Part shown: positions 2,632-17,350 of the stretch, in pieces
Numbering within the stretch: the first letter of the stretch is position 1
Layout of the letters: every line of letters begins with the position of its first letter
Assembly: GCA_039000165.1 (NCBI GenBank)
Contig: JAWBTW010000016.1
Coordinates: 1 to 17,350, forward strand
Length of the DNA stretch: 17,350 nucleotides
Source: Candidatus Aenigmatarchaeota archaeon
GTDB lineage: Archaea; Aenigmatarchaeota; Aenigmatarchaeia; CG10238-14; SCSR01
Direction: 5' to 3'
Position numbers and translations under genes: made by a program
The notes under the pieces: generated by a model
Databases searched by the model: none
The model's input: the letters and a program-made list of their open reading frames with translations, nothing else
What the model was told of the DNA's origin: nothing

Positions 2632-4208
2632 AGAAGTTAGGACTAGCATTAGTTTTAATAGTTGTAACAATCGTTTTACTTGCATTTTTTACTTTTAGGC
2701 ACGAGGAAAGAGTTGAGGAAAAAAGAACAGAAGAGAAAATTCTTTTCATAGGTTCTGCTGTTGACTTGTACACCATAGACCCTGCTGTTGGGTTTGATGA
2801 AGCAATAAGTAGTACATTAAAAAATCTTTACGATAATCTATACAGGCATGTTGACAACCCACCAAGAGTTATTCCTTGGCTTGCAGAAAGTCATGAAGTT
2901 TTAGACAACGGGACAACTTGGATTTTTCACTTAAGAAAAGATGCCTATTTTCATGATGGTTCGCCAGTAACCTCTTATGCTGTAAAGTATTCTTTGGAAA
3001 GGCTTTTAAAAATAGGCAAAGGTCCTGCTTACATGTTTAAAGGAATAGTGAACGAAAGTGGTATAGAAACTCCTGACAACTACACAGTTAGGATTAAGCT
3101 TCTTAAGCCTTTTGCACCTTTTCTTGATATTATACCTTGGTTGTTTATAGTTAATCCAAAAATTGTTGAGGAGCATAAGGGCGAAGATTTTGGTCAGAGT
3201 TGGCTTGCTTCCCATGAAGCAGGTTCTGGCCCGTTTACCCTTAAAAATTTCATTCCTGGTCAAATCTATGAGTTTGAGGCTTTTGAAAACTACTGGAAAG
3301 GATGGCCTGGAAAAAGACTAAAAGGATTTACAAGAAAAGTTATAAAAGAGTCTTCTGAAAGAATTAACGCTTTGGTTAAGGAAGAGGTCCACATAATTGA
3401 TTGGGTTTCTCCTGAAGATCAAGTTCTTTTGAGAGATGCTTATGGATTCTTAGTAGTGGAAGAACCAGCAATCCATACTTTTGAAATAAAAATGAACAAT
3501 CAGTATGGACCAACTTCTAACAAGCATGTAAGAAAAGCAATATCTTATGCTTTTGATTACGATGCTCTGGAAAAATTGTGGGTTGGAAGAGCAAAATTAC
3601 TTAAAGGGCCTTTGCCACCAAGCGAGTGGGTAAACGAAAATCTAAACGTTTACAGGTTAAACATGACTAAGGCAAGGGAAGAATTAGCAAAATCTCCTTG
3701 GCCGAATGGCGGTTTTTCTTTGGATTATGTTTATGTTGCTGGTTTGGAAGAAGAAAAAGCAGTTGGTTTGCTGCTAAAAAAACAACTTGCTGAGTTAAAC
3801 ATAACTGTAAACATAATTCCTATGAGTTGGGCCGATGCTGTGAATTCATTTAAAGACCCAAAAACCTCGCCAGATATGTTTCCACTTTATTCTAGTTCAG
3901 CTTATCCAGACCCAAACAACTATTTGTGGTCAGCTTATCACTCTTCAACTGCTGGTGAGTGGACAAACCCAGGGCATTATAAAAATTCTGAAGTAGATAA
4001 AATACTGGAAGAAGCTTTAGGAACTTTGGACAAAGAAAAAAGAAGAGAATTATACTTTAAAGCACAGGAAATAATAGTTGAAGATGCTCCAAACATCTTT
4101 GGAGTTTCTCCCCTAGACTTTCATGTTATGAGCAAAAAAGTTAAAGGGTTTAATTATTGCCCTGTTCAGGGTTCTGACGAGGAGTTCTATGGAGTATGGT
4201 TAGAATAA
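2628..4208 (+). CDS. Family-5 (DppA/OppA/NikA-like) extracellular solute-binding protein with N-terminal TM anchor
   Basis: Motifs include TIDPA, LYDNL, PWLAESHEV..NGTTWIFHLRKDAYFHDGSPVT, GSGPF, VRKAISYAFDYD and Y.N.EVDKILEEA....D.EKRRELY.KAQEIIVEDAP. The N-terminal hydrophobic helix has no lipobox Cys. The start overlaps the PAS gene stop (ATGA). Confidence 0.93.
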   Translation: MKKLGLALVLIVVTIVLLAFFTFRHEERVEEKRTEEKILFIGSAVDLYTIDPAVGFDEAISSTLKNLYDNLYRHVDNPPRVIPWLAESHEVLDNGTTWIFHLRKDAYFHDGSPVTSYAVKYSLERLLKIGKGPAYMFKGIVNESGIETPDNYTVRIKLLKPFAPFLDIIPWLFIVNPKIVEEHKGEDFGQSWLASHEAGSGPFTLKNFIPGQIYEFEAFENYWKGWPGKRLKGFTRKVIKESSERINALVKEEVHIIDWVSPEDQVLLRDAYGFLVVEEPAIHTFEIKMNNQYGPTSNKHVRKAISYAFDYDALEKLWVGRAKLLKGPLPPSEWVNENLNVYRLNMTKAREELAKSPWPNGGFSLDYVYVAGLEEEKAVGLLLKKQLAELNITVNIIPMSWADAVNSFKDPKTSPDMFPLYSSSAYPDPNNYLWSAYHSSTAGEWTNPGHYKNSEVDKILEEALGTLDKEKRRELYFKAQEIIVEDAPNIFGVSPLDFHVMSKKVKGFNYCPVQGSDEEFYGVWLE

Positions 4209-5884
4209 AACCATACTTAACCATAAGAAGGAAGTTAATTTTATTCTCACTAATTTTTATCCTGTCGGTTTTAGTTTTAACTTCTGTAAATAATTTTTTA
4301 GTTCAAAAAGCTCATCAAACTACAAACCTAGTAATTCATGAATATGAGTTTCTTTTAAGTTCGATAGATTACTTGAAAATTTTATCCCTAACTTACAGGT
4401 TAAATTTGGACGAGTATCTTTTCACAAACAGTGAAGTTTATCTTCAATCTATGAAAAATTTAATGAATAAAACTGAAAACCAGATTTTTCTTCTCGAAAG
4501 TAAGTTTACGGAAAAAAATGAAATGTTAGAAGAGCTGAAAAGTTCTTTCAGCTCTTATTTTCTGCTGACAGACAATCTAATAAATTACTACAAAAGCAAC
4601 CCAGAAGATATCGAAAGCATAAACATTAAGAAGAATAGAATAGATTCTTTACTAGAAAATGCAATCTTATCAAAACTGGATTTGCTCTCGAAAGAAGTAG
4701 AAAAGAAAACTCTAGAAGCATCAGAAGAATTAGAAAACTTTCACTTTCTAAATATTTTGATATCAATTATGATAATCGCTCTTTTAACAACTTCAAGTTT
4801 GGTTTATTCTTTCTTGGTGGCTAAAAGCATTTTAGACCCAATAAGTAAGTTTGAGGAAGCTACAACTAGAATAGCTGAAGGTGAGTTTGGGTTAAGGATA
4901 GAAGTAAAAAGTAGAGATGAACTTGGAAAGTTAGCTTTACATTTTAACGAGATGTCAAAGAAACTTCTAGAGTTTAAAAGAAAGATCGAATCTCACCAAA
5001 AAGAATTAGAAAAGACTGTAAGAGAAAGAACGAAAGAACTGAACGAGAAGGTAAAAGAATTGACAGAAACTAAGATTGCTCTAATGAATATGATGGAAGA
5101 CTTGAGCGAAACGAACAAAAAGCTTCTCGAAGCTCAGAAAAAATTGAAAAAAAGTTATATGGAACTCAAGAAGCTAGATGTGGAAAAAGACAGGTTTATT
5201 TCAATAGCTGCTCACGAGCTCAAAACCCCCATGACTGCAATTTCAGGGTTTGCTCAACTCTTGAAGGACGAAGAGATAATCAAAGATAAAGAGAAGCGTT
5301 TAAGATACCTTAAAATCATTGAAGATGAAATTAAAAGGTTAAGCGCTCTTGTTACAGATATTTTAGATTTATCAAGAATAGATTTAGGAACGATAAAAGT
5401 TTTTGTTGAAGAAGTAAACATAAATGAGATTTTGAATGACGTGAAAAATGAAATGATTGAACTTGCTAAAGAAAAGAGCCTATACCTAAATGTTGAAGTT
5501 GAAAAAGGAATACCAAATATACTCACTGACAAGGAAAAGCTGAAAAGAATATTGTTGAACCTAGTTAGTAATTCAATAAAATACACAGAAAAAGGTGGAA
5601 TAACGATTAAAGCTGAGAAAGAAGGCGATGAAATAAAGTTTAGTGTTTCGGATACTGGTATAGGTATACCAAAAGAACATTTCAATAAAATTTTCACAAG
5701 ATTCTTTCAGGTTTCTTCACCTTACACAAGAAAAGCTAAAGGAAGTGGCTTAGGTCTTTCTATATGTAAAGAGCTTGTAGAGCTTTTAGGAGGTAGAATA
5801 TGGTTTGATAGTGAGGTAGGAAAAGGAACTACTTTTTACTTTACGCTACCTTTAAAATATAAGGAAAAGAAGACAAATAAATAG
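4196..5884 (+). CDS. Membrane sensor histidine kinase (TM - extracellular helical domain - TM - HAMP - coiled coil - HisKA - HATPase_c)
   Basis: HAMP: PISKFEEATTRIAEGEF...SRDELGKLALHFNEM. H-box: FISIAAHELKTPMTAI. N-box: ILLNLVSNSIKYT. G1: VSDTGIGIP. F-box: IFTRFFQ. G2: GSGLGLSIC, followed by GKGTTFYFTLP. Overlaps the SBP gene by 13 nt. Confidence 0.96.
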   Translation: MVRIKPYLTIRRKLILFSLIFILSVLVLTSVNNFLVQKAHQTTNLVIHEYEFLLSSIDYLKILSLTYRLNLDEYLFTNSEVYLQSMKNLMNKTENQIFLLESKFTEKNEMLEELKSSFSSYFLLTDNLINYYKSNPEDIESINIKKNRIDSLLENAILSKLDLLSKEVEKKTLEASEELENFHFLNILISIMIIALLTTSSLVYSFLVAKSILDPISKFEEATTRIAEGEFGLRIEVKSRDELGKLALHFNEMSKKLLEFKRKIESHQKELEKTVRERTKELNEKVKELTETKIALMNMMEDLSETNKKLLEAQKKLKKSYMELKKLDVEKDRFISIAAHELKTPMTAISGFAQLLKDEEIIKDKEKRLRYLKIIEDEIKRLSALVTDILDLSRIDLGTIKVFVEEVNINEILNDVKNEMIELAKEKSLYLNVEVEKGIPNILTDKEKLKRILLNLVSNSIKYTEKGGITIKAEKEGDEIKFSVSDTGIGIPKEHFNKIFTRFFQVSSPYTRKAKGSGLGLSICKELVELLGGRIWFDSEVGKGTTFYFTLPLKYKEKKTNK

Positions 5885-5885
5885 T

Positions 5886-6644
5886 ATGGGAAAAGTTTAC
5901 TTAGTTTTTGGTTTGTTATTCTTGTTCATTCTCTTTCTCTATGTTTATCAGCCTTTAGGAGAAAACTTCTTTATAATTTCTGATATTATACCAATTTTTC
6001 TCTCGTTTTTAGCTTTTGTTTTTGGACTTTATTCTTACAAGTTTTACGGTAGTACTAGCCTTCAAGGCAAGGCATTCTTGTTTTTAACCCTTGGGACATT
6101 CTTTTGGTTTTTAGGTGAAACTACTTGGGGAATTTATGAAATAATTTTTGGAATCAAGTCGCCTGTCGGTACAATAGCTGATGTTTTTTGGCTAGTTGGT
6201 TATCCCCTTTTCTTATTAGGTTTATGGTATGTTCGAAAAATTTCTTCAACAAAAATTAGAAAACCTGAGCTACTTTTTCTGCTTTTCTTTTCGATTCTTG
6301 TACTTGTTTTTACTTTTTATTTGATCAAGGAAGATGTTTTTAACCCAGAGGTTCTACTATCAGAGAAAATTTTCAGTGTTGGCTATGTTGTTTGTGATAT
6401 AGTACTGATAATTTCTTCAACATTTGCAGTGGTAAATCTCTTCGAAACAAAAATTTTTAGAGCATATTTCTTAATAATTTTGGGAATAATTTCTATGAGC
6501 ATAGCGGATATCTACTACATGAAGTTTCTAGAAACTTATGCAAGCAGTAATTTAATAGATTTGTGGTGGGATTTGAGCTACATTCTATTAGCAGTGGGAT
6601 TTTTCCACCACAGAAAAATAATGAAAGACCTTTTGAAGAAGTAG
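5886..6644 (+). CDS. Integral membrane protein (~8 TM), resembles stand-alone membrane sensor modules normally fused to kinases or cyclases
   Basis: There are eight hydrophobic segments. Motifs LGTFFWFLGE..W.IY and TIADVFWLVGYPLFLLGL resemble the 'P/S-x-ADxFYLxGYPL' multi-TM input module. The gene starts after a 1-nt gap following the kinase stop. Confidence 0.85.
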   Translation: MGKVYLVFGLLFLFILFLYVYQPLGENFFIISDIIPIFLSFLAFVFGLYSYKFYGSTSLQGKAFLFLTLGTFFWFLGETTWGIYEIIFGIKSPVGTIADVFWLVGYPLFLLGLWYVRKISSTKIRKPELLFLLFFSILVLVFTFYLIKEDVFNPEVLLSEKIFSVGYVVCDIVLIISSTFAVVNLFETKIFRAYFLIILGIISMSIADIYYMKFLETYASSNLIDLWWDLSYILLAVGFFHHRKIMKDLLKK

Positions 6645-6873
6645 ATTCTTTTGCAATTTTCTTAATCTTTCTAGTTTTTCCATACTTTTCGTAAAGGGGT
6701 TTGACATATTCTTCTGCAGCTTCTTTGCCTATGGCTTTTTCTAAAAAATACTTAAGCTCTTCCAAGAATTCCATCGGATACTTTTTTGGATCCTCAAAGC
6801 TATCTAGAACATTTAGAAACTTTGGACCAAAAAGGTCAAGAATTATTCTCTTAGCATCTTCGTACAAGCTCAT
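6493..6873 (-). CDS. Small helical hypothetical protein; N-terminal ~70 aa resemble small archaeal signalling-associated domains (DUF3227/NitrOD5-like, tentative)
   Basis: It has an ATG start and follows the MEDS gene on the same strand. The first 70 aa look protein-like (IILDLFG...YPMEFLEELKYFLEKAIGKEAAEEYVKPLYEKY). The last ~50 codons overlap the convergent 8-TM gene and look like read-through. Confidence 0.6.
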   Translation of the reverse strand: MSLYEDAKRIILDLFGPKFLNVLDSFEDPKKYPMEFLEELKYFLEKAIGKEAAEEYVKPLYEKYGKTRKIKKIAKESTSSKGLSLFFCGGKIPLLIECSSNPTTNLLNYCLHKFLETSCSRYPLCS

Positions 6874-6909
6874 AATTTAAGTTTAACTTCCTTAAATAAA
6901 TACCAAGCA

Positions 6910-7592
6910 TCAACCAGCTTTTTTAATTTTTTCTTTAAGTTTAGCTAGCTCTAACTCTCTCTTTATTGCAATTTTATAAAACTTTTCTAAGTCTTCTATC
7001 TTGCCTTTTAAGATTTTTCTTTCTACAGTTTCAGAAACACACCATTTTCTTCCCTTCTTATAGATTAACATCATATGAGATTGAATTATATCTATCAGGT
7101 CAGGAGTCGAAAGGCTTCTTACTGGATACGCACATACGAACAAAACCTTAGAATCTGAAAATTTTTCTGTTATTTCGTTTTCAAAATTCACAACTTTTTT
7201 AAAAAGGTTAGTATTAATCACCCATGACATCTCAGAAGCTCCTCTCACGAGCTTTAGACCTTTAACAATAATTTCATCCAATGCATTTTTAATCAAAATG
7301 TATGCATTTTTTTTGTTGAAGCGATTACCTTTAAAGTAGAAATTTTTGTAGTAAATGAAATGCATTCTTTTCTCTTTTAAAGATTTTTCTAAGCCAATTT
7401 TTTCTTCTATCTTTTTAGCTAATTCCTCTCTAGGATAGAGAAAAATACAGAATTCATTATTTTTTAATCCTGTGACGAAAAATTTTGATAAGCGTCTAAA
7501 AGTTCTCCTTCTTCTTCGTAGAGCATAACCATATGACTTCCTATACCAACTTCTACAGGGCAAAAACCCAAATTAACTTTTTCGCTCACCAT
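6910..7592 (-). CDS. MEDS (DcmR-like sensory) domain protein with C-terminal coiled coil, interrupted by a -1 frameshift near 7479-7492 (pseudogene, sequence error or programmed frameshift)
   Basis: An upstream frame from ATG 7592 gives MVSEKVNLGFCPVEVGIGSHMVMLYEEEGELLDA (MEDS N-terminus G-x-H-hhh-Y...E) and stops at 7466-7464. The downstream frame continues LSKFFVTGLKNNEFCIFLY...VRGASEMSW...FENEI...FVCAY.......DIIQSH. Joined, the two frames give ~227 aa. Confidence 0.85.
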
Positions 7593-7629
7593 TCAAATAA
7601 ATATTAATCAGAGAAAAAAAATAAATATT

Positions 7630-7638
7630 TAAGGAGGT
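7630..7638 (+). promoter_or_regulatory. Shine-Dalgarno sequence of the receiver gene
   Basis: TAAGGAGGT lies 5 nt upstream of the GTG at 7644. Confidence 0.75.
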
Positions 7639-7643
7639 TTGAA

Positions 7644-8015
7644 GTGAAGAAGAAGATAATGATAGTTGATGACGAGGAAAATTTGGTCGAGCTTGTGAAA
7701 GCGATTTTTGAAAGAGAAGGATATGAGGTAATTCCTGCTTATAGTGGAAAAGAATGCCTAGAAAAACTGGAAAAAGTTAAGCCAGACTTGATTCTTATGG
7801 ATATGATGATGCCAGGAATGACCGGGAAAGAAACGACAAAAAAAATAAGGGAAAACCCAAAAACAAAAAACTTAAAAATAGCTTTTCTTACAGTTGTTAG
7901 ACTTTCTGAAGTTGGGATGGAAGAAATGAAAAAATTGAATGTTTTGGATTTTATAACAAAACCTTTTGACAACGAGGATTTGGTGAGAAGGGTAAAAAAA
8001 ATTTTGGGAGATTAG
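7644..8015 (+). CDS. Stand-alone (single-domain, CheY-like) response regulator receiver
   Basis: It has the acidic pocket (IMIVDDE), phospho-Asp (PDLILMDMMMPGMTG), conserved Thr (FLT) and Lys-Pro (ITKPFD). The GTG start has a strong SD. The 123-aa protein has no output domain. Confidence 0.96.
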   Translation: MKKKIMIVDDEENLVELVKAIFEREGYEVIPAYSGKECLEKLEKVKPDLILMDMMMPGMTGKETTKKIRENPKTKNLKIAFLTVVRLSEVGMEEMKKLNVLDFITKPFDNEDLVRRVKKILGD

Positions 8016-8025
8016 AAATGGTAAG

Positions 8026-8658
8026 ATGACAAAGAAAATATCTCTCCCAAAAATCGAATCAAAACTTTTGAAAAAGATGTGGCTATCCTGTTCAGAGGTT
8101 ACGGCAAAAGCTTTAAAGGAAATGATAAACAAGGAAGTTAAAGTTTCTTCCTCCTTTTTAAAGGTTTTACTTTTGAACGAAGTTCCAAAACTTTTAAACC
8201 CAGAAAAAATTTCAACTACAATATTCTTCATCAAGCTTAAGAACGCTGTAAATGGGGTGATTTTGCTTTCCTCTTCCCTTAAGGATATATTAAGAATGGC
8301 CGACATTTTCCTTAAAAAAGAGAAAGGTTATTTCAAGGATTTGAGCGACGAAAACTTGCCTGTTTTAAAAGAGCTTGCAAACATCCTTTCAGGATATTTT
8401 ATAAACATTCTCCAAAAATTGTTCAACACAAAGTATGTTTTATCAGAACCTTTTCTTTCTGTTAACCCTTTTAGAGCAATAGAGGAATTCGAGCTTGGTC
8501 AAGTTTATAAAGAAGAAATCTATACTCTAGTTTTTTTATCAGAGTTTGAAATTCCAGAAGAAAGAATTAAACAAAAAATTGTTTTGCTTTTCAAAAGCGA
8601 TGATATAAGAAAAATTTTGGATTTGATTAGCGAGAAAATAAAGCTAGAAATTGCCTAG
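8026..8658 (+). CDS. cheC: CheC-family (CheC/CheX/FliY) aspartyl-phosphate phosphatase-like protein
   Basis: Size (210 aa) and layout match CheC (TAKALKEMINKEVKVS...EVPKLL; NGVILL; MADIFL). The second active-site motif KELANILSGYF...SEP matches E-x2-N-x22-P. The first site is degenerate. Confidence 0.8.
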   Translation: MTKKISLPKIESKLLKKMWLSCSEVTAKALKEMINKEVKVSSSFLKVLLLNEVPKLLNPEKISTTIFFIKLKNAVNGVILLSSSLKDILRMADIFLKKEKGYFKDLSDENLPVLKELANILSGYFINILQKLFNTKYVLSEPFLSVNPFRAIEEFELGQVYKEEIYTLVFLSEFEIPEERIKQKIVLLFKSDDIRKILDLISEKIKLEIA

Positions 8659-10349
8659 GATTTTTTCTTAACTTTTTCCTTTCTTAACTTTTTGGTTACC
8701 TCTTCCTTTGCTTTAACTTCCTTTTCCTCAACTTTTGTTTCAGTTTTTTCCTCAACTTTGCTTTCTTTCTCAACTTCTTCTTTTGGAGTTTCCTTAGGAG
8801 TTTCCTCTCCAGCTTCTTCGCTTCTTTTCTCTTCAGACTTTACTTCTGGTTTTTCTTTTTCAGCAACCCTAATGATTTTTTCCACTCTTTTCCACTCTTT
8901 TTTCAAAAGCTCTTCTATTTCTTTCAACTTTTTTTCATTTATTCTCTTCACGCTTTCATACTCTTCTTTGCTTATCTTCCCTTCTCTCATCTTTTCTTCC
9001 AAAGAGCTCAAAAGCAAAAGAATATCTTCTCTATTTCTTCTCAGTTCAATTATACTTTCAGGAAGCTTAACCTGAACTATTGGCAAGACTTTGTTAATTT
9101 CTTCTATCTGCTTTTTCATAACAAGAATGTCTTCCTTAATTTCCTCCAAATCCCTTTTGCTAACATAACCTTCAAACTTAACGTTCAAAGCATCTAAAGA
9201 TTTGATTATTTCCTTCAAGCTTTCCTCAACATCTTCTTGCTTAACCTTGTAAAGAGTTAAATCTTCTAAGCCTTTACTCAAATCAACAAATATCTTCTCA
9301 GTCTTTACTCCAATTCTTTCTATATACTTGACTGCTTCGTTTATATCTTCAACTTTTTTCTGGATTTCCTTGTTAATTCTTCCTATGTTTTCTAGACTTC
9401 CAATTCCTTTCAGCATTTCATAAACTGCGTTTATCTTTGTTCCTAAATCTTCTGTTTTTCTCTCAAGTTTTTCCAGAGCAAGCTGGTGTTTATCTATTAC
9501 GCCTAAAACTTCCCTAAACTTCTTAGAAATTTCTTGTGGCTTAACCTCAGAAACTTCATCCTCTATTTTCTCAAGTTTTATTGCAGTCTCTCTTATGCTT
9601 GTGTCAGCAGTTAAAATCATGCTTCTCAGCTCGCCTATACTTTCAGATATCGTTCTTATGCTTTCATCAGTAACTCTCAAACTTTCTCTCATAGTTTCTA
9701 TCATAACTTTCAACTTCTCTATTTCAACCATAAACTGCTCTGCTTCAATTTTCTTTAAAATTTTTTCACTTGTTTCTTCCCTAACCTCCTTTATTGGAGT
9801 TTCAACAGCTTTAGGTTCTTCTGCAGGAGGAGAAACTGGAGGGGACATCGCTACTTCAAGCTTAGCTTCTTCAGCTTTAGTTTCTTCTTCACTTTTAGCT
9901 ACTTTTTGTTCTTTCTTTCTCCCAAAAATTTTGCTTAAAAACCCAAGCCTTGCCTTAGGTTCTATTGTTTCAAAAGTTTTAACTTCAATTTTCTCCTCTT
10001 TCTTTTCTTCTTTTGGAACTTCAACTTCTTTTTCAACTTCTTCAGCTTCAACCTTTTCTTCCCTTGGCTTAACTTCAGCTTTAGCTCCCATCCTCTCTAA
10101 AAATTTGTTTATCTTCTCAAGTTTTTCAAGGTATTTTAGCTTTGTTTCCAAGTAACTTTTTTCGCTTATTTCTGCCTTTCTGTACTGATCTTCCAGAAAG
10201 CCTAGCATGCTTTCAAGCTCAGCTTTTTCTTCCTGAATCTTCTCAATTTTTTCTCTTTCAAATTTTTCCTTTCTTTCAACTTTCTTTTCAGTTTTCTCCA
10301 ATTTCTTACGTTTCTCTCTTTTTACCTTTTTGATTTTTTTCTTTGCCAT
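8655..10349 (-). CDS. Highly charged coiled-coil protein (564 aa) with two SHOCT-like helical motifs and an amphipathic GFLSKIFG segment
   Basis: The protein is E/K-rich with heptad-like stretches over aa ~200-430 and no TM helix. Its ATG directly abuts the stop of the giant gene (TAA-ATG). Its stop overlaps the convergent cheC stop in CTAG at 8655-8658. Confidence 0.88.
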   Translation of the reverse strand: MAKKKIKKVKREKRKKLEKTEKKVERKEKFEREKIEKIQEEKAELESMLGFLEDQYRKAEISEKSYLETKLKYLEKLEKINKFLERMGAKAEVKPREEKVEAEEVEKEVEVPKEEKKEEKIEVKTFETIEPKARLGFLSKIFGRKKEQKVAKSEEETKAEEAKLEVAMSPPVSPPAEEPKAVETPIKEVREETSEKILKKIEAEQFMVEIEKLKVMIETMRESLRVTDESIRTISESIGELRSMILTADTSIRETAIKLEKIEDEVSEVKPQEISKKFREVLGVIDKHQLALEKLERKTEDLGTKINAVYEMLKGIGSLENIGRINKEIQKKVEDINEAVKYIERIGVKTEKIFVDLSKGLEDLTLYKVKQEDVEESLKEIIKSLDALNVKFEGYVSKRDLEEIKEDILVMKKQIEEINKVLPIVQVKLPESIIELRRNREDILLLLSSLEEKMREGKISKEEYESVKRINEKKLKEIEELLKKEWKRVEKIIRVAEKEKPEVKSEEKRSEEAGEETPKETPKEEVEKESKVEEKTETKVEEKEVKAKEEVTKKLRKEKVKKKS

Positions 10350-13300
10350 TTATCCACCCATTTTTTCTATTCTCTTTTCAACAGACTCAAGATAAGTTTC
10401 GGCCATCTTGAAAGCTGCAGTCTTAACTTTATCCTTAGCTATGTTCAGCTCAATTTCAACATCGTAAGTATCAACCTTCTTCGCCTTTAGCTTCTCAATT
10501 CTCTTCTCCAATTCTTCGATCTTCTTCGTAAGCTTCATGTAAAGGTTAAGCTCCTCATCGGTCAAAGCAAAAGGCGAATGCAACAAAGGCCTAAAGCTAA
10601 CGAACCATGGCTTACCATAATTGTACTCAGGGTTCTGTACCATTCCTGTACCAACTGTTAGCTTCGTTACTCTAGAAGCATAATCCATACCATACTTTGA
10701 CCTTACTCTTCCTATATCTCCTTCGTACTTTGTTCTTAGCTGAATCTCGTTTGCTATGTTAGCTCTTATGGCTCCCTTGAAATCTTGTAATACTTGCGAG
10801 ATTAAGAAAACTCCAATTCCCCACTTTCTAAACTCTCTGCAAGCTCTTTCTATAGCTACATATCCTCCCTTTCCTCCATACTTTGGCAACAATCTATGAA
10901 CCTCGTCATAAACAAGTAACAATTTAATTTGCTTCGATTCTGGTGGTCTCATGTCAAATATTGCCTGAATGCTTCTTCTAACAAACTTGTCTAACTGCTC
11001 AGGAGGCAGCCTATTCATAACAAAAACAGTAATCTCTCCTGGGTTCATGTACTTCTTTATGTCTATGGGCATTTCTGGGTCTTCTACAACTATTATGTTA
11101 GTTTTGAAGCTTCTTGCATCTGTTGGCTTAAGACCGAACTTTGGATAGAGGTCAAGCATTTCTTTGAACCTGCAAGGTTTCATGAATCCTGTCCATTGAG
11201 CAGTAGGATCAAAAACTATTACAGGAACTTTTCTTTTCAGTAATTCTTCAGCACAAACCATTGCAGAGACACTTTTACCTGAGCCGGTACCACCAGCTGC
11301 TATCGAATGCATTAACAACTGAGAAATATCTAAGTATGCTTTAACATCAGTTTCGGCAATTTTTCCAACTTCTATTGAGTTTGGTCCTGGTTGAGGCAGT
11401 TTCTTGAATTCTACTGGTGCAATATACCTTGCTTTTGCTGCTTTCGCTGCTCTGTAAGCGCCGTACCACTTAATTCCTATTATCAACAGAGGAACCACAA
11501 CAAAAAGAATAACATAAGTTAGCCAATGCATGAATACACTTCTGAGTATAAAGATTGGTAGAGGAAGAACTGTTACTTCAAAGCTATCTGTTGAAATAGC
11601 ATACTTTATACCGTACCAATAGCTTGCGTTAACCTCTAAGACATACCTTCCTTCTGGTGTGTCAGAAGGAATTTCCAAACTTCTCACATAAGTTTTTTCT
11701 GTCTCTACTGCAAGAGTTTCTTTTGAAGTTGTTATTATTCTATCTTCGTTTAGTGGCTTAACAGTGTAAGTTACTGTTATATCTTCAACCTTAGCAGTTG
11801 GACCCATGTTTATAAGCTTAACCTCAAAAGTAAGGTTTGTCCCTGGGTTGATTGCTTTTGAAAGTATTTTTACGCTTACATCAAGCAAAGGTTCAGGAAC
11901 TTGTTGCACAACTATGGTTACAGGAGTCCTATGAACAATATTTCCTGCAGTAACAACTAGATCTCCAGTATAAATTCCTGGTGCAATTCTTGGAGGAGCA
12001 TAAGCTCTTACAGCAGTAACTTCAGTAGATTTAGGAGCGACAGTAAACGTAGGCTTCTGAACTGTTAAAAGTTGAAAGACAGGGCCTTCTACAGTAATTC
12101 TTACATTTGTAGCTGTGTCTAAGTTGTTAGTCACGTCAATAGAAAATACTTTTTCTTCACCAGGAGTAAGAGTTGTTTCTATCAAAGTAGTTTTTACTTC
12201 CAAGGGAACTAAGGCTACAGGAGGAGCAGCAGGACCTGCTCCAGGTCCTCCTGGTCCACCAGGTCCTCCTACTATTGGTGGAATTGTAGGTGGAATGTAA
12301 ATCGGGACTTGAGGAGCAGGAGGTATTGCTGGGCAATCTATTGGGCAATTACTAGTGCTTTCTCCTGCTTCAGATTCGCATTCTCCATTCCCACAAATAA
12401 ATTCTGCAAGAATATAAACTCCTCTTATATCACTTAAGTTTACTGTAACAGTGTAATCAGTTAAGTTCACTGACTTATCTGAGTTGTCCATTTCTCTGTT
12501 AGTAATTCTCACCCAATTAGTGTTTTGGGCAGTAGAAACTTTTGGTGTCCAGTTTCCACTATACTTATAAATTCCAAGCTTGTTTGGGTCATGAATAGGA
12601 ACGTTACATAAACCTAAAACACAATCAGAAAAGTTGATTTTAAGTATAAAGTAAGCTGGTCTTAAGATAGTGTTAAGATAAACTCCTTTTACTGCTGAGC
12701 TTGTTGTCCTCACGTTAGGAACATTACCAAAAACTATTGGGTTGAAATAATCTGTAGCTATGGTCAAGTTGTACAAAAGAATTTGATGGCTGAAAGTAGG
12801 TTCAAGCAAGCTTATTTTCAAATCATAAGTTTTCATATCTATAGTTTCGTTGTAATAGCCATCGCTTGCGTTTGAGTTAAAGTCGAACCTTATTGTTTCA
12901 CTTCCTTGATCGTAAAACTTGAAGTTAACTCTTAAGGCAGGTTCAGAAATTTGCTCCAAATCCTTAGCATAGCCTGAAAATATTGCAACAGGATAGATTT
13001 CAAAAGATTTTGAAGCAGAGTTGCAATTTTTGCTTAAGTCGCAAACAAAAGCTGATATTGTGTAATTTCCTAGGCTTGAAGTGTTTGTCAAGTTATACTC
13101 AAACAGGTAATTATCCTTAATTCTTGAGATTAAAGTAAAGCTTATGTTTTGGGTTGTGTTGTCAGGGTAAGTTATTTCTCCGCTTATATTCTTGATTCCT
13201 CCGCTTTCTGTAACGTTAACCAAAACTCTAACTGTAGAGTTTGCAGGTATTCTTACAGGAGTAATTAGCTCTATTAAAGGAGCTTGAGTGTCGCGATAAA

Positions 13301-16300
13301 CTATTGAATCATTTTCTATATCACTTCTTACCAAATACCTTGTTCCATTGTAGCTTGCGGTTATGTTTAAGTTATAAACTCTTGCTTCCTCTAACTCAGG
13401 AGCTATAAACCTAACAAACCATAGCTTTTCAGTTGAGTTGTAATAAGCAGAGCTAACAAAAGCTTCTGCCTTTCTTTCATAATCAAAGATAGAAACGTTA
13501 AAGCTTACGTTTTGAGTAACAAAGCTCGAGTTTGCAGTAATGTTAACTTTTGCTAGAATTTCGCTTCCACTAACAACTCCAGTTATAGGATTAAAGCTTG
13601 TTGGACTTATTATCTTAACCTTGTAAACAGAAACAAACATGCTTACAAAAGTTTCTCTTGTCTTTTCTGTTGCGTTTTCTCTCAAACTTCCTGTTATGTT
13701 GCTTATTATCTTTCCTGTGTAGTTTTTGTCAAATTGAATGTCAGGCGAAGAATAGGTTATGTGAATTGTTTTTATTTCGTTGTAAGGCAAAACTATCCTT
13801 GTTTCGCTCAAGTTAAGATAAGGAGCTATTTCACCTGTTTTTATAAGCTCAAGCTCTATTTCTGAGTTTCCTGTGTTTATTATATCTATGCTTCCAAAGT
13901 ATCCTTTATCATCTTGTAAAACATAAGAGCTTAAAACTTTTGGGTTATGCTCCCAAGTTATGTTTACAGGAACTGTTATGAAAACAGGAAGCTCTAAGTA
14001 AAACTCAGAATCCCATCTTATTTCTATTGTTCCGTTATGAGTTCCTGCTAAGTAGTTTGGAGGAACTTCAAAGCTTACGTTAACTTGCCTTGTTTCACCA
14101 ATCGGTATTGAAGTGAAGTTTTTGGGTTTAAAGGAAACGTTAAAGTCTTGACAAACTATTCCCCTTGTGCAGTTTATTTCAACGTTTGTAACGTTTTTAT
14201 TTCCTATAGATTTTAAAGTAATGTTTACACTATCCTTTGCTCCTGGAGGAATTATTTTTGTTATGTTTTCTTCTATAACTTTAAGCTTTGGGTTTGGAGT
14301 AACGTTTACAAGAATTTGAGCAGAGCTTGAGTTATAAGTTTCGTTCAAGTTCTTCCATTCTGCTGTCAAGTTTATGTAATAGATTCCTGCTTCAGTCCCG
14401 TTTGGTATGCTTATTAAAGTTATGTTTGACTTTGATTTCCATTTCAAGATAGTTCCAAAATCAAAGAAGCTTGGTTCGCTTGAAATAAAACCAGAATCTA
14501 TGGTTAAATTAGAATCAAAAGCTCTTGAGCCGCCAGTGTTATTCAAAGTTATGTTAACAGCAAAGCTTTGTCCATACTCTATTGTTATATCGTTTGCTAA
14601 AATGTGAGTAATGTTTGGAATTATTTCTAGTCTTGTAGTTGCCGAACCCTCAACTTCTATTGGCGAAGTGCATCCTTCTAAAGAACGAGTATCGTTTGCG
14701 CATATTCTAATTAAATGAATTCCTTCTTGTAAGCTTGAATAAGTTGTGTTATAGATTGAACCAGCAAAGGAACCCATAAACTGAACAAAGCTTGAGCCGT
14801 TCGGTAAAGTAATGTTAACCCATGCTTTATCAACAGCAAAATTATCAGTAATCTTTGCTTGTATAGTAACGTTTTCAAAACCTATTTCAAAAACTCTTGG
14901 CTCAACTATTATGTCAGTTATTGTTGGCGGAACATCAGTAACGTTAAGTATTATTGTTGTTATCCTTTCAGGTGGGTTTGCAAAAGTAACGTTTCTTATA
15001 ACTATGTTTACAGTGTAAATTGCTTGATAAGCATTCCAAGGAACTGAATAGTCAACACTAACGTTTCTTGAAACTTGTTTTTCTAAGTCAAAGGCGGTTG
15101 TTCCTTTTGCTCCTGAAGGATAAGCAGTAACAAAAATACTTCCATTTCCAGACTTAAGAATCTCGAAAGGTATTTTTACGTTTCCTATGTTTGTTACGGT
15201 TATATTCCCTATGGTTCCGCTTGTGTTTAAGGGAAGTAAAACATAACCGAAGCTTTCTGGGCTTCTTATCCAAGAAGTATTTATTGGTATTGTTAAGTTG
15301 AGAAGCATTTCATCATATCCTGCATTGCTTGAGCTTGCTCTAACTTTTGTCCAGTAAATTCCTGGTGCTTGACCTGCAGGTACTGTTATCGTTATGTCTG
15401 AGACAAAACTTTCGCCTGCTGGAAGCAAGCCATAAGAGTTTGGAATTATAGATAAAACACAAAGCGGACAATCAAAAGCGAGGTTTCCTCCAACTGTGCT
15501 TATTGAAACATCTCTTACTTCATCATTTCCAGAAGCATAAGTTGTTATATTGCCAATATAAGTTGTCAAGTCGTGAGGAGTTGTTTTGTTTATGCTCTTC
15601 GGAATAACCTCTATTACAGGGTTTGAAGAAACTGTTATTGATGTTTCATTCAGTTTTTGCTCAACAGTTTTATCAGGGTTTTGCCATGTAGCTATAGTAT
15701 AAGCTCTTATTAGCTGCGGAGAAGTTTTTTCTGGAACTGTTATTTTGAAAACCCAAGAGCAGGTTTGTCCTGCATAAACTGTCCCGCACTCTTTTCTGCT
15801 TTCATTATAAGTTAGCGAACCTAAAGGATCTTCTGCATGAGTTAAGTTGACAGAATAAGCGGTTGCTGGTCCTAAGTTAGTAAAGTTAACAGAAACTTCA
15901 AAAGTAAAGCCTTGAGTTTGAGTTATGTTATAAGCTACTACGTAAGCAGGAAGTTGCTCAACCAAGCCAGAAATCTTCCCCCAAACGCTTATGTTACCAA
16001 CAAAAGTACTATTAACGTTAGATTCTGGTGGATAATCTCTTGCATAAACGCTTATGTTATACTCTCCTCCTATGGGTGGAAGGTAGCTTGCGGAATAAGT
16101 TGCTCTGAAAAATCCAAAACCTGTTTCCGGCACACTTATATTGCTCATAGGAACTATTACTATGCTTCCATTCGGCAAAGTAATGTTTGCCCAGACAGAT
16201 TCTATACCGTAATTATCAATTATTGTTGCGTTTATGTAAGTAAGATTAAGGTTTGCTTCTATGCTTGAGTTTGGAATTACAGAAAAGTTAAAGATTTTTG

Positions 16301-17350
16301 GCAAGCTTATATCTTTTACCCAAATCGTTTCTATAGCTTCTTTTATGTTTGGTGAATAGTACTGAGTAGCGTTTTCTCCTATAGAACAATTAAAAGTAAT
16401 GTTTCCTTTTTGTGTTGGAATAAAAACATAACTTGCATAGCCAGAAGAATTAGTTGTATAACTTCCGTTAAATATAAATTCAGAGGAAGGTTCCCACTTG
16501 TAAGAAAAGTTGACCTCATAATCAGAAATTCCTGCTCCAGATTCATGATCTTTTACCAAACAAGTTGGATAGAATTCTTCTGGATAGGGAGTTATTCCTA
16601 TTGGCGAAACCCAAACAACATCTGCTAAACCAGTTATTATTATACTAACGTTTGATTTTCCATCTTCATAATAACTTTTGCTTGCAATTGCCATAAGCTG
16701 ATGAGGTCCTGTTCTTTGCTGAGCAACTATTGGCTGAGGCAGAGTTACTTCCAAGCCTACGGCAAGCAATGCAGTTTCGTTGTACCATTTAACTGTCGGG
16801 TTAAGAACAGAAGAGTTTTCTCCATTTTCACTTATTACAGTTGCGCTTAAATCTATAGCTTCTGATTTTGGATGAAGACTTTCGTTTAGTGGTGAAGTAA
16901 TGTTAACAAATAAAATTCCTTTAACTGTTATTGAAGTTGAATTGGTTAGAGAATCTTCATTTCCTGGCCTTGTTGCGTTTATGTATATTACATAAGGTGA
17001 AGGAGTGTAATCGTCTGGCGGGTTAAAGTCAATTAGCTCGCACCATCCTGTTGAGTTTGTTAAGCAACTGAATAAGAAATGAGTTGAGTTGTAAAAGCTA
17101 ACGTTTGCGTTGCTAGCATGCCCTATTTGAGCATCCCTAACATGAACGCTTATGTTTGTTTGGTATGGAGTGAAAGAATCGTTTCTATAAACCCAAGGAT
17201 ATTGAGGAATTATTTGATCAATTTGTAAAGGTCTGCTGAGCCTTATCCAAGTTTCCATTTGTGCTAAAGTAGCGTTATAGTATAAAGTTGAGTTGCTTTC
17301 AATAAAACAAGTTAAGTTGTACCATCCTGCCCCTTCCAAGTTAGTGTACC
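10350..17350 (-). CDS. Giant cell-surface protein (Ig-like repeats, Cys-rich motif, Pro/Gly linker, single TM) fused to a C-terminal cytoplasmic HerA/FtsK/VirB4-superfamily (DUF87-like) P-loop ATPase; 5'-partial
   Basis: The frame is open to the window edge (..YTN-LEGAGWY), so TTG 17339 is probably an internal Leu. The TM WLTYVILFVVVPLLIIGI lies at ~11470-11525. Walker A HSIAAGGTGSGKS has GGTGSGKS at 11271-11294, followed by VIVFDP. Walker B LLLVYDEVH has YDEVH at 10896-10910, followed by REFRKWGIGVFLISQ (HerA-type R-E-x-R-K-x-G...SQ). Confidence 0.93.
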   Translation of the reverse strand, partial: YTNLEGAGWYNLTCFIESNSTLYYNATLAQMETWIRLSRPLQIDQIIPQYPWVYRNDSFTPYQTNISVHVRDAQIGHASNANVSFYNSTHFLFSCLTNSTGWCELIDFNPPDDYTPSPYVIYINATRPGNEDSLTNSTSITVKGILFVNITSPLNESLHPKSEAIDLSATVISENGENSSVLNPTVKWYNETALLAVGLEVTLPQPIVAQQRTGPHQLMAIASKSYYEDGKSNVSIIITGLADVVWVSPIGITPYPEEFYPTCLVKDHESGAGISDYEVNFSYKWEPSSEFIFNGSYTTNSSGYASYVFIPTQKGNITFNCSIGENATQYYSPNIKEAIETIWVKDISLPKIFNFSVIPNSSIEANLNLTYINATIIDNYGIESVWANITLPNGSIVIVPMSNISVPETGFGFFRATYSASYLPPIGGEYNISVYARDYPPESNVNSTFVGNISVWGKISGLVEQLPAYVVAYNITQTQGFTFEVSVNFTNLGPATAYSVNLTHAEDPLGSLTYNESRKECGTVYAGQTCSWVFKITVPEKTSPQLIRAYTIATWQNPDKTVEQKLNETSITVSSNPVIEVIPKSINKTTPHDLTTYIGNITTYASGNDEVRDVSISTVGGNLAFDCPLCVLSIIPNSYGLLPAGESFVSDITITVPAGQAPGIYWTKVRASSSNAGYDEMLLNLTIPINTSWIRSPESFGYVLLPLNTSGTIGNITVTNIGNVKIPFEILKSGNGSIFVTAYPSGAKGTTAFDLEKQVSRNVSVDYSVPWNAYQAIYTVNIVIRNVTFANPPERITTIILNVTDVPPTITDIIVEPRVFEIGFENVTIQAKITDNFAVDKAWVNITLPNGSSFVQFMGSFAGSIYNTTYSSLQEGIHLIRICANDTRSLEGCTSPIEVEGSATTRLEIIPNITHILANDITIEYGQSFAVNITLNNTGGSRAFDSNLTIDSGFISSEPSFFDFGTILKWKSKSNITLISIPNGTEAGIYYINLTAEWKNLNETYNSSSAQILVNVTPNPKLKVIEENITKIIPPGAKDSVNITLKSIGNKNVTNVEINCTRGIVCQDFNVSFKPKNFTSIPIGETRQVNVSFEVPPNYLAGTHNGTIEIRWDSEFYLELPVFITVPVNITWEHNPKVLSSYVLQDDKGYFGSIDIINTGNSEIELELIKTGEIAPYLNLSETRIVLPYNEIKTIHITYSSPDIQFDKNYTGKIISNITGSLRENATEKTRETFVSMFVSVYKVKIISPTSFNPITGVVSGSEILAKVNITANSSFVTQNVSFNVSIFDYERKAEAFVSSAYYNSTEKLWFVRFIAPELEEARVYNLNITASYNGTRYLVRSDIENDSIVYRDTQAPLIELITPVRIPANSTVRVLVNVTESGGIKNISGEITYPDNTTQNISFTLISRIKDNYLFEYNLTNTSSLGNYTISAFVCDLSKNCNSASKSFEIYPVAIFSGYAKDLEQISEPALRVNFKFYDQGSETIRFDFNSNASDGYYNETIDMKTYDLKISLLEPTFSHQILLYNLTIATDYFNPIVFGNVPNVRTTSSAVKGVYLNTILRPAYFILKINFSDCVLGLCNVPIHDPNKLGIYKYSGNWTPKVSTAQNTNWVRITNREMDNSDKSVNLTDYTVTVNLSDIRGVYILAEFICGNGECESEAGESTSNCPIDCPAIPPAPQVPIYIPPTIPPIVGGPGGPGGPGAGPAAPPVALVPLEVKTTLIETTLTPGEEKVFSIDVTNNLDTATNVRITVEGPVFQLLTVQKPTFTVAPKSTEVTAVRAYAPPRIAPGIYTGDLVVTAGNIVHRTPVTIVVQQVPEPLLDVSVKILSKAINPGTNLTFEVKLINMGPTAKVEDITVTYTVKPLNEDRIITTSKETLAVETEKTYVRSLEIPSDTPEGRYVLEVNASYWYGIKYAISTDSFEVTVLPLPIFILRSVFMHWLTYVILFVVVPLLIIGIKWYGAYRAAKAAKARYIAPVEFKKLPQPGPNSIEVGKIAETDVKAYLDISQLLMHSIAAGGTGSGKSVSAMVCAEELLKRKVPVIVFDPTAQWTGFMKPCRFKEMLDLYPKFGLKPTDARSFKTNIIVVEDPEMPIDIKKYMNPGEITVFVMNRLPPEQLDKFVRRSIQAIFDMRPPESKQIKLLLVYDEVHRLLPKYGGKGGYVAIERACREFRKWGIGVFLISQVLQDFKGAIRANIANEIQLRTKYEGDIGRVRSKYGMDYASRVTKLTVGTGMVQNPEYNYGKPWFVSFRPLLHSPFALTDEELNLYMKLTKKIEELEKRIEKLKAKKVDTYDVEIELNIAKDKVKTAAFKMAETYLESVEKRIEKMGG
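12216..12395 (-). other. Cys-rich motif (CGNGECESEAGESTSNCPIDC) followed by a Pro/Gly low-complexity linker with (GGP)3
   Basis: Read directly from the translation. The Cys motif spans 12333-12395 and the linker PAIPPAPQVPIYIPPTIPPIVGGPGGPGGPGAGPAAPP spans ~12216-12332. Confidence 0.85.
13620..16313 (-). repeat. Tandem ~460-aa four-domain super-repeat (2 copies) inside the giant protein, with a third partial copy starting at 13292
   Basis: Units start at DISLPK (16313) and DVPPTI (14936), 1377 bp apart. Colinear matches include WANITLPNGS/WVNITLPNGS (18/20 nt identical at 16168-16187 vs 14797-14816), AYNITQTQG/ANDITIEYG, VSSNPVIEV/VTPNPKLKV and IPINTSW/VPVNITW. Confidence 0.75.

Follow-up and report, generated by a model that had tools for sequence, protein, structure and literature searches.

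A probable giant surface glycoprotein of a hot-spring archaeon of the Aenigmarchaeota ends in a membrane-anchored ATPase related to HerA and CedD and is followed by a conserved partner gene

In this study, we examined a stretch of 17,350 nucleotides (the window) from Candidatus Aenigmatarchaeota archaeon, contig JAWBTW010000016.1 of assembly GCA_039000165.1, and relate the long open reading frame (ORF) at one of its ends to known motor ATPases and to known giant surface proteins. The window is the entire contig C16 of a 783,037-bp genome in 25 contigs that is 91.6% complete. A single uninterrupted ORF of 2,332 amino acids (aa) runs along the minus strand at 10350..17348, with its TAA stop at 10350-10352, and is cut off on its 5′ side, where the contig (and with it the window) stops. 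With high confidence, this region makes up the final fifth of a roughly 34-kb gene for a giant surface glycoprotein of a hot-spring member of the Aenigmarchaeota, a DPANN lineage; that the DNA comes from a DPANN archaeon had been guessed correctly in the original prediction, as the closest loci are labelled Candidatus Aenigmatarchaeota. In line with that prediction, one frame encodes an extracellular part, one transmembrane (TM) helix and an ATPase; since the frame is cut by the contig end, the more than 1900 aa seen before the TM helix are the 3′ part of the gene only. Taken together with a conserved partner gene directly downstream, the best explanation overall, which we consider moderately probable, is a giant adhesin-motor that acts with its partner as a ring motor at the site of cell contact. 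The features of the gene pair are as follows, where residue numbers of the type G153 are those of alignment A1 (41 homologues of the ATPase module).

10350..17348, minus strand: giant surface-protein gene, 3′ part, 2,332 codons plus TAA, equal to aa 9072-11403 of the 11,403-aa frame of the related genome G001
11568..17348, minus strand: visible ectodomain, aa 1-1927, with sequon-rich, predicted Ig-like/NEW3-type modules (sequons, Pfam)
14013..14246, minus strand: NEW3 (NPCBM-associated) beta-sandwich domain, aa 1035-1112 (Pfam NPCBM_assoc/NEW3, 1.4e-17, 64 bits, curated cut-off 24.4)
12330..12395, minus strand: Cys-rich motif CGNGECESEAGESTSNCPIDCP, aa 1652-1673 (translation; kept in the homologues P0004 and P0005)
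12204..12332, minus strand: Pro/Gly-rich hinge, aa 1673-1715, leading from the long stalk to two membrane-proximal beta-sandwich modules (translation; P/G-rich in P0004 and P0005 too)
11463..11567, minus strand: pre-TM hydrophobic stretch and single TM helix, aa 1928-1962, then a basic juxtamembrane stretch (hydropathy, AlphaFold2)
10353..11462, minus strand: cytoplasmic HerA/FtsK-superfamily ATPase with C-terminal helical tail, aa 1963-2332 (Pfam, PDB, AlphaFold2, Foldseek)
11271..11297, minus strand: Walker A AGGTGSGKS, aa 2018-2026 (translation; G153, T155, G156, G158 and K159 invariant in A1)
10890..10922, minus strand: Walker B LLLVYDEVHRL, aa 2143-2153 (translation; D282, E283, H285 and R286 invariant in A1)
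10794..10838, minus strand: REFRKWGIGVFLISQ, aa 2171-2185, a conserved Arg/Lys cluster with a sensor-type SQ (R305, E306, F307, R308, K309, W310, G311, S318 and Q319 invariant in A1)
10353..10565, minus strand: C-terminal three-helix tail, aa 2262-2332 (AlphaFold2 helices 398-423, 429-443 and 447-463; consensus kept in A1)
8655..10349, minus strand: partner gene P0002, 564 aa, its ATG directly after the TAA of the giant gene

The fusion of ectodomain and ATPase is genuine and conserved, and, to the extent that assemblies can tell, it did not arise from a chimeric join. The window stretch is present in hot-spring metagenomes of four studies, and contigs of two studies, neither of them the possible source, bridge ATPase, TM segment (encoded at 11463-11525) and ectodomain: a contig of 1,974 nt (run X5) covers 11010-12983 with zero differences, and one of 10,249 nt (run X7) covers 11185 onward. 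Whether homologues keep the fusion, a question raised with the original prediction, can be answered from 252 of them: a hydrophobic segment lies at the projected TM position, just before the ATPase, in 239, at least 200 aa precede the ATPase in 238 and at least 1,000 aa in 143. An N-terminal hydrophobic segment was seen in 138 of these 252 homologues, many of the rest being partial, and 98 continue for more than 100 aa beyond the ATPase match. A faulty or chimeric assembly, or a HerA-based module of anti-phage defence that merely adjoins an adhesin, could account for a gene that sits at a contig end in a fragmented metagenome-assembled genome (MAG) and matches PADLOC HerA models weakly (best 1.5e-14). 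Against this stand the two bridging contigs, the same gene order in hundreds of homologues and the uninterrupted frame, and no Sir2, DUF4297 or nuclease partner was found in the window; such a reading, to which we attach almost no weight, is refuted as far as present data go.

The family is large and widespread. Among proteins of 1,282-4,081 aa, 496 matches were obtained from 7,981 candidates scored, and the 120 listed all have E<=2.6e-124. In an exhaustive search of cluster representatives, 1,050 matches reached E<=1e-3, of which 369 also passed E<=1e-30; lengths run from 356 to 7,665 aa among the 150 listed. Source names of the homologues include Aenigm-, Micr-, Woese-, Pace-, Nano- and Nanohaloarchaeota, and species-representative genomes hold at least 608 confirmed stretches. 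Within the phylum of the window, 92 of 201 sampled genomes have a match at E<=1e-40, with one to three copies each; within that of the homologous locus L040, 27 of 42 genomes have a match, in frames of up to 12,145 aa. The records of some family members carry the labels Heimdallarchaeota, Halanaerobiaceae bacterium, Thermococcus and Hadarchaeales (L045, L068; P0018, P0289, P0294), which could be mis-binned short contigs or real spread outside DPANN. As a further observation, the precomputed Pfam accessions of the homologues show the ATPase module joined to very different ectodomains. CarboxypepD_reg (PF13620) and DUF5752 (PF19027) were named among members by Pfam scan, and other accessions are PF13360/PF13570, PF07719/PF00515 and PF13229, which we take to be PQQ-type beta-propellers, tetratricopeptide repeats (TPR) and parallel beta-helices, respectively. 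To judge from these domain matches, such variety suggests that modules were shuffled while the TM-motor cassette stayed the same.

The full length of the gene can be read from its closest locus, L002 in genome G001 (on an 802,037-bp scaffold), which is 99% identical in the ATPase region. When traced upstream, the G001 frame extends over 11,428 codons without a stop, and its codon 25 is an ATG, with MSRKSEVGQSQLFLAFLVLLSGITLVIA next, which gives a protein of 11,403 aa; the window protein corresponds to its aa 9072-11403 with 98.7% identity. Looking for a signal peptide on the full gene had been proposed with the original prediction, and MSRKSEVGQSQLFLAFLVLLSGITLVIA is, judged by eye, a Sec-type signal-peptide-like start, found in G001 and also at the very end of contig C9 of the window's own genome, where the first 107 aa are encoded with 79% identity to G001. 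The window gene is thus split between two contig ends (C9 and C16), its repetitive middle unassembled and probably similar in length to that of G001. Pfam detects MG2, Filamin, DUF11, NEW3, Big_1, Big_7 and Big_3_5 domains in the full G001 protein, with no match in a 3,333-aa middle piece. The order is, almost certainly, signal peptide, about 11,000 aa of Ig-like/NEW3/MG2/filamin modules, hinge, two beta-sandwiches, TM helix, ATPase and three-helix tail, and the protein very likely is a giant surface glycoprotein of type-I membrane topology. Such lengths recur: 41 of the 44 related loci that include 10 kb of upstream sequence begin with the frame still open, and frames of at least 10,000 codons ending in the ATPase occur in 13 of 201 genomes of the phylum, up to a maximum of 14,526. 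At 34.2 kb of an 802-kb scaffold, the family takes up about 4% of a 0.8-Mb genome. An Ig-like domain contributes roughly 4 nm, and DPANN cells are in the size range of a few hundred nanometres. With some 100 aa for each Ig-like domain (Reva 2023, PMC10266531), the fibre could reach a similar extent, a few hundred nanometres.

The predicted topology is N-out/C-in. Kyte-Doolittle windows above 1.6 fall in one main segment at aa ~1925-1965 and otherwise in only two windows, at aa 234-235. In the AlphaFold2 model, the pre-TM stretch, the TM segment and the basic stretch KWYGAYRAAKAAKARY are one continuous helix (model residues 64-106); a second TM helix was ruled out, the 35-aa hydrophobic region being too short for two. 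Consistent with the sequon-rich ectodomain described in the original prediction, we counted 99 N-x-S/T sequons in the window ectodomain (1,938 aa), where 27.8 would be expected by composition, and the complete G001 ectodomain has 508 against 171 expected. The same prediction had taken the lack of sequons after the TM helix as a sign of an out/in topology; in the 370 cytoplasmic residues of the window protein we count none against 0.8 expected, a zero that is weak by itself, and the picture becomes clearer across 237 homologues, where ectodomains hold 20,902 sequons against 7,635 expected and cytoplasmic parts 112 against 294 expected, a descriptive count over related, non-independent sequences. 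The ectodomain is probably beta-rich, as Pfam matches to NEW3 and Ig-type domains suggest, and it diverges faster than the ATPase: identity to P0004 is 83% in the ectodomain against 97% in the ATPase (17% against 3% non-identity, about 5 times faster), and to P0005 66% against 86% (34% against 14%, about 2.5 times). The conserved module also takes in the last extracellular beta-hairpin and the TM helix. Further out, just before the Pro/Gly hinge, sits the Cys-rich motif CGNGECESEAGESTSNCPIDCP, possibly a knot that disulfides or metal would stabilise at the foot of the stalk.

By sequence and predicted fold, the ATPase appears to be a HerA-FtsK superfamily member in a clade of its own, lying at about the same distance from HerA as from CedD, and not to be a VirB4. 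The motifs that define the superfamily are present, namely Walker A, Walker B (hhhhDE), a conserved Arg after Walker B and a polar sensor residue where the next strand ends; as the original prediction had noted, they are intact, and the key residues of Walker A, Walker B and REFRKWGIGVFLISQ are invariant or nearly so among the 41 aligned homologues. REFRKWGIGVFLISQ aligns to AREGRKFGVG..SQ of HerA. Pfam assigns DUF87 (the HerA central domain, 1.4e-10) and HerA_C (1.6e-05) to the window protein. All seven PDB sequences found at E<=1 are HerA-type, including T. kodakarensis HerA-NurA (9x1l), S. solfataricus HerA (4d2i), Sir2-HerA (8wiv) and YjgR, and the A1 profile retrieved 11 PDB sequences: eight of HerA type, two that align with the extracellular part, and DotL (0.0019). 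A model predicted from the 41 aligned homologues has a predicted local distance difference test score (pLDDT) of 92.4 and a predicted template-modelling score (pTM) of 0.81; the fold comparison proposed with the original prediction placed HerA 4d2i at Foldseek rank 1 (3.8e-14, TMq 0.46), with a superposable RecA-like core, and TcpA and FtsK at ranks 41 and 48 (FtsK 2ius, 3.7e-09). Among the 41 members, Pfam matches are DUF87 in 41, HerA_C in 41, DEAD in 36, TrwB_AAD_bind in 34, ResIII in 34, FtsK_SpoIIIE in 28, AAA_10 in 26 and T4SS-DNA_transf in 20, and NCBIfam matches are CedD in 40, HerA_Thermprot in 37, TraD in 35, TraC in 32 and VirB4_CagE (TIGR00929) in one. The NCBIfam scores all lie far under their cut-offs, the window protein reaching 37 bits against 600 for CedD and 800 for HerA_Thermprot, which argues for a clade of its own.

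The nearer assignments do not fit. Besides its low HerA_Thermprot score, the window protein lacks the HAS-barrel of HerA proper and has no adjacent NurA gene; it falls short of a CedD or VirD4-like coupling ATPase by its CedD score, and its neighbours are a coiled-coil gene and sensory genes. The original prediction had spoken of a HerA/VirB4-type motor, and only the first half of that name stands: Pfam, PDB and Foldseek agree on HerA, whereas the N-terminal domain of VirB4, PF03135 (CagE_TrbE_VirB), is absent from the window protein and from a scan of the 91.6%-complete genome. Pfam scans of the window proteins and the family members showed no nuclease domain. Because the catalytic residues are invariant and the ATPase evolves more slowly than the ectodomain, an active enzyme seems to be required.

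The giant gene does not stand alone. Its TAA abuts the ATG of P0002 (GGTGGA-TAA-ATG), with GGTGGA just upstream of that ATG, and P0002 encodes a lysine/glutamate-rich (K/E-rich) protein of 564 aa. We examined 80 related loci, found a downstream ORF in 75, and among these a match to P0002 in 65 by phmmer and in 66 by jackhmmer. Since the partner follows 65 of 75 related genes, the suggestion in the original prediction of a single-gene machine does not hold. The layout of P0002 comprises a SHOCT-like helix hairpin, a disordered K/E-rich linker, a helical core of about 230 aa, a second SHOCT-like hairpin and a K/E-rich tail. In an alignment of 28 partner proteins (A2), the N-terminal hairpin has the motif LL.SLE..Y..A.ISE..Y, a second hairpin has a motif of the same type, many members have a third copy, and E236, E240 and R242 of the helical core (SESIGELRS) are invariant. 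With Pfam SHOCT_2 matches in seven and SHOCT matches in six of the 28 members, the motifs may be SHOCT-like; at E<=1, the remaining partner Pfam matches are mostly coiled-coil noise. The P0002 model is all-helical (pLDDT 67), has no P-loop and found no Foldseek match in the PDB at E<=0.001, so that an ESCRT-III/PspA-like identity, which we had considered for the partner, gained no support. A complex prediction of the ATPase (A1 residues 100-466) with P0002 (A2) scored 0.01, which is not evidence either way. Our literature search found no paper on the partner gene.

A second pair of this kind is encoded in the same genome. At the start of contig C15 lies another TM-ATPase gene, its ATPase 46% identical and 1,168 aa of it visible before the contig start cuts it, and the 306-aa ORF that follows (3475-4392) matches the partner core at 4.6e-17. 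When searched against the whole genome, the A2 profile found the two partner ORFs (2.9e-142 and 8.1e-41) and two far weaker ORFs on C7 (2.8e-06 and 0.00044). To judge from these matches, each of the two ATPase genes has its own cognate partner. The arrangement at C15:3-5202 is TM-HerA-type gene, partner paralogue and then a MinD/ParA-like P-loop gene (4414-5202), and orthologues of this TM-HerA-type class are about 2,186-2,227 aa long in related genomes.

To place the window protein, it is useful to compare it with giant proteins already described. Nanohaloarchaeal SPEARE proteins are up to 8,553 aa long, mostly extracytoplasmic, with a TM segment toward the C-terminus, and their intracellular part, the most conserved, was read as a type III restriction enzyme; similar sequences were reported in Woesearchaeota, Aenigmarchaeota, Micrarchaeota and Altiarchaeales; and proteomics detected SPEARE with the ectodomain and the TM-plus-cytoplasmic part in different size fractions, a hint of cleavage between the two (Hamm 2019, PMC6642349). 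Small SPEARE-like genes are described for MAGs including QJJ-7, the source label of our homologue P0031 (Zhao 2022, PMC9563170). Proteins of 9,409 and 8,880 aa from two cultivated nanohaloarchaea were re-annotated in the order Sec signal peptide, about 75 Ig-like domains, TM segment, 'VirB4/TraG-like' ATPase and coiled coil, with a VirB4-family ATPase gene immediately downstream, and a type-IV-like secretion 'straw' was proposed (Reva 2023, PMC10266531). The published lengths are 5,998 aa for NAR1_1133, 8,553 for SG9, 9,409 for SVXNc_0300 and 8,880 for BNXNv_0298 (PMC6642349, PMC10266531). Thus, the statement in the original prediction that no characterised system has this architecture has to be withdrawn: the architecture is already published and contact-plus-translocation already proposed, although the members are mechanistically uncharacterised.

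Like SPEARE, our family combines a signal peptide, a long Ig-like ectodomain, a single C-terminal TM helix, a P-loop ATPase and a C-terminal coiled coil in DPANN symbionts, and the SPEARE match to a restriction enzyme is mirrored by a spurious ResIII match on the ATPase in 34 of 41 members. Unlike SPEARE, which is hypersaline, it belongs to the Aenigmarchaeota and a hot spring, and it exceeds the SPEARE lengths with 11,403 aa in G001 and frames of up to 14,526 codons in the phylum. At least one laminin-G domain is reported for the SPEARE ectodomain (Hamm 2019, PMC6642349). Here, by contrast, Pfam found no laminin-G, protease-like or toxin-like region in the window protein or the G001 protein. 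Other family members carry PF02210, PF13385 or PF00054, presumably laminin-G families. The homologues with Nanohaloarchaeota labels, P0031 and L040, are 57-61% identical. A word-index search from P0031 over the range 3,729-5,000 aa did not have the 4,057-aa SG9 protein among the matches listed, and the named SPEARE proteins did not appear in the clusters of ten long homologues. In the literature that we covered, no paper deals with the Aenigmarchaeota proteins or proposes a HerA/CedD assignment; the supplements of Hamm 2019 and Zhao 2022, which may list the family in Aenigmarchaeota or QJJ-7, lay beyond this coverage. Within the same coverage, the HerA/CedD placement, the conserved partner and the frames of at least 10,000 codons in 13 of 201 genomes are not in print.

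Two published readings of such proteins can be weighed on these data. In one, the cytoplasmic part is a restriction or DNA-degrading domain that destroys imported DNA, as proposed in Hamm 2019 (PMC6642349). The match behind it is reproduced by ResIII in 34 and DEAD in 36 of 41 members, yet the weak matches of the window protein lie on the P-loop core (DEAD at aa 149-290 of the construct), ResIII misses the window protein altogether, Pfam finds no nuclease domain, and Reva 2023 (PMC10266531) concluded likewise; we regard this reading as highly improbable. In the other, the type IV secretion 'straw' (Reva 2023, PMC10266531), a VirB4/TraG-like ATPase, working with another VirB4 ATPase encoded downstream, injects effectors into the host by a route along or inside the giant protein. 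The proposal is already in print and could draw on the weak Pfam matches to TrwB_AAD_bind and T4SS-DNA_transf (34 and 20 of 41 members) and the NCBIfam matches to TraD and TraC (35 and 32). Nevertheless, we consider it improbable for the window family: unlike in the loci of that study, the downstream gene encodes a SHOCT-like coiled-coil protein instead of another VirB4-type ATPase, a scan of the genome gave no PF03135, VirB4_CagE matches only one of the 41 members, the best sequence and fold matches are HerA-type, and a chain of Ig-like domains would have no lumen.

Among characterised proteins, CedD is the closest experimentally studied analogue of the TM-plus-ATPase module. CedD (saci_0667) is a membrane-bound HerA-FtsK ATPase that is essential for DNA import in Sulfolobus through the Ced system; in the published model of its hexamer, the pore is positively charged and measures about 28 A (PMC11823120). 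Like CedD, the window protein has its TM helix directly before a HerA/FtsK-type ATPase, and 40 of 41 members match the CedD model; with 37 bits against a cut-off of 600, it is therefore not a CedD orthologue. CedD has no large ectodomain, and its partners CedA, CedA1, CedA2 and CedB are not adjacent here. With HerA (the DNA translocase that works with NurA, such as S. solfataricus 4D2I, and the bacterial defence proteins Sir2-HerA and DUF4297-HerA) the window ATPase shares the best sequence, profile and fold matches and the Walker A, Walker B and REGRK..SQ-type motifs. Unlike HerA, it has a TM helix in place of the HAS-barrel, is membrane-anchored and has no NurA, Sir2 or DUF4297 partner, and the window genome keeps a separate canonical HerA-like gene on contig C3. 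FtsK/SpoIIIE, Streptomyces TraB and VirD4/TrwB/DotL belong to the same superfamily and are membrane-tethered ring ATPases that pump DNA or protein; the FtsK and coupling-protein matches (FtsK_SpoIIIE in 28, TrwB_AAD_bind in 34 of 41) are weaker than those to DUF87 and HerA_C, present in all 41. Proteins of the FtsK/TraB/VirD4 type have two to five TM helices and only small extracellular parts.

How might such a protein work? In the ring-motor reading that we favour, the fast-evolving glycosylated stalk would bind the host cell, and the ATPase domains, by analogy with HerA, CedD and FtsK and as family membership suggests, would form a ring beneath the membrane and so would cluster several stalks at one site. 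This ring, organised or regulated by the partner, would spend ATP on moving a polymer at the contact site, and any channel-forming component would come from elsewhere, none being encoded beside the gene pair. The most likely substrate would be DNA or a nucleoprotein, by analogy with CedD; that the ring motor and its partner move DNA or nucleoprotein is a tentative proposal on this precedent. Several points weigh against this explanation. One TM helix per subunit could not form a DNA- or protein-sized channel alone, and a Pfam scan of the window revealed no polytopic membrane protein, pilin or nuclease gene beside the pair. The NCBIfam scores far below their cut-offs leave the substrate unreadable from homology. 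No Pfam match to the HAS-barrel was obtained in the window protein or the 41 members (the canonical HerA-like gene on C3 itself matches this domain below the curated cut-off, at 23.2 against 25.2 bits), and PF03135 was likewise not found in the 91.6%-complete genome. Finally, kinship with SPEARE is drawn from domain order, the ResIII and coupling-protein side matches, the Nanohaloarchaeota-labelled homologues and the statement of Hamm 2019, the named SPEARE proteins being compared by description only.

Several of the same observations would fit a non-translocating scaffold, the main rival, which we judge rather unlikely. Here, the ATPase ring and the coiled-coil partner would be a platform that clusters and anchors the long fibres, since a lone TM helix would pull out under load; ATP would be spent on assembling, disassembling or remodelling this platform, and nothing would be translocated. 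In its favour, the partner, a coiled-coil protein modelled as all-helical, repeats its SHOCT-like hairpins, accompanies each paralogue as a cognate and follows 65 of 75 related genes; no channel gene is adjacent, and the conserved module includes the last extracellular beta-hairpin and the TM helix, as expected of a load-bearing anchor. What speaks against it is that the known members of the superfamily are polymer pumps (HerA, FtsK, VirD4 and CedD; PMC11823120) and that catalytic residues are conserved more strictly than a passive anchor needs. At the other extreme, the gene pair might be a two-gene contact organelle found DPANN-wide, with six fibres of several hundred nanometres on one HerA/CedD-like ring that imports host DNA or nucleoprotein. 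We consider this unlikely; if true, it would supply nucleotides to cells unable to make their own and be a minimal cell-to-cell translocon unrelated to type IV secretion system (T4SS) pili, in which the partner would gate the ring or polymerise around it.

The neighbours of the gene pair are sensory and regulatory genes on the other strand. Window positions 1342-8658 form a dense sensory/regulatory cluster in a 0.78-Mb genome, and the same genes follow the partner in G001. The members of the cluster, as assigned by Pfam, are as follows.

1342-2631: triple-PAS protein
2628-4208: SBP_bac_5 solute-binding protein
4196-5884: HAMP-HisKA-HATPase histidine kinase
within 1342-8658: 252-aa protein with no Pfam match
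6910-7563, minus strand: MEDS-domain protein
7644-8015: response-regulator receiver
8026-8658: weak CheX-like protein

At the other end of the contig, a 420-aa ORF (window 1-1260, minus strand) with no Pfam match runs off the contig; it may be another surface protein, and in the matching place of L002 an ORF (20491-21396) opens with a signal-peptide-like stretch. Elsewhere in the genome, contig C4 starts with a 1,414-aa ectodomain-like ORF (C4:3-4244) that ends in a run of X (a scaffold gap), shares 28-33% identity with parts of the giant ectodomain and may belong to one more giant surface gene that the assembly has split. Four more DUF87-type ATPases were seen: the canonical HerA-like protein on C3 (501 aa), one on C1 (708 aa) with an F-93-like winged helix, one on C5 (424 aa) with a Zot-like match and one on C10 (561 aa) near a contig end; those on C1, C5 and C10 resemble ATPases of mobile elements or viruses.

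Much of the diversity of archaea lies in DPANN lineages, which rely on physical contact with their hosts. The family described here couples a motor that is strongly conserved with a fibre that faces the host and evolves fast, and it extends the SPEARE architecture, with even larger genes, to thermophilic Aenigmarchaeota. The family becomes easier to study through its placement between HerA and CedD, its partner gene and its frames beyond 10,000 codons, though the finding is not categorically new, and the ATPase of about 370 aa and the 564-aa partner now offer soluble targets for biochemistry in a field that has relied on description until now.

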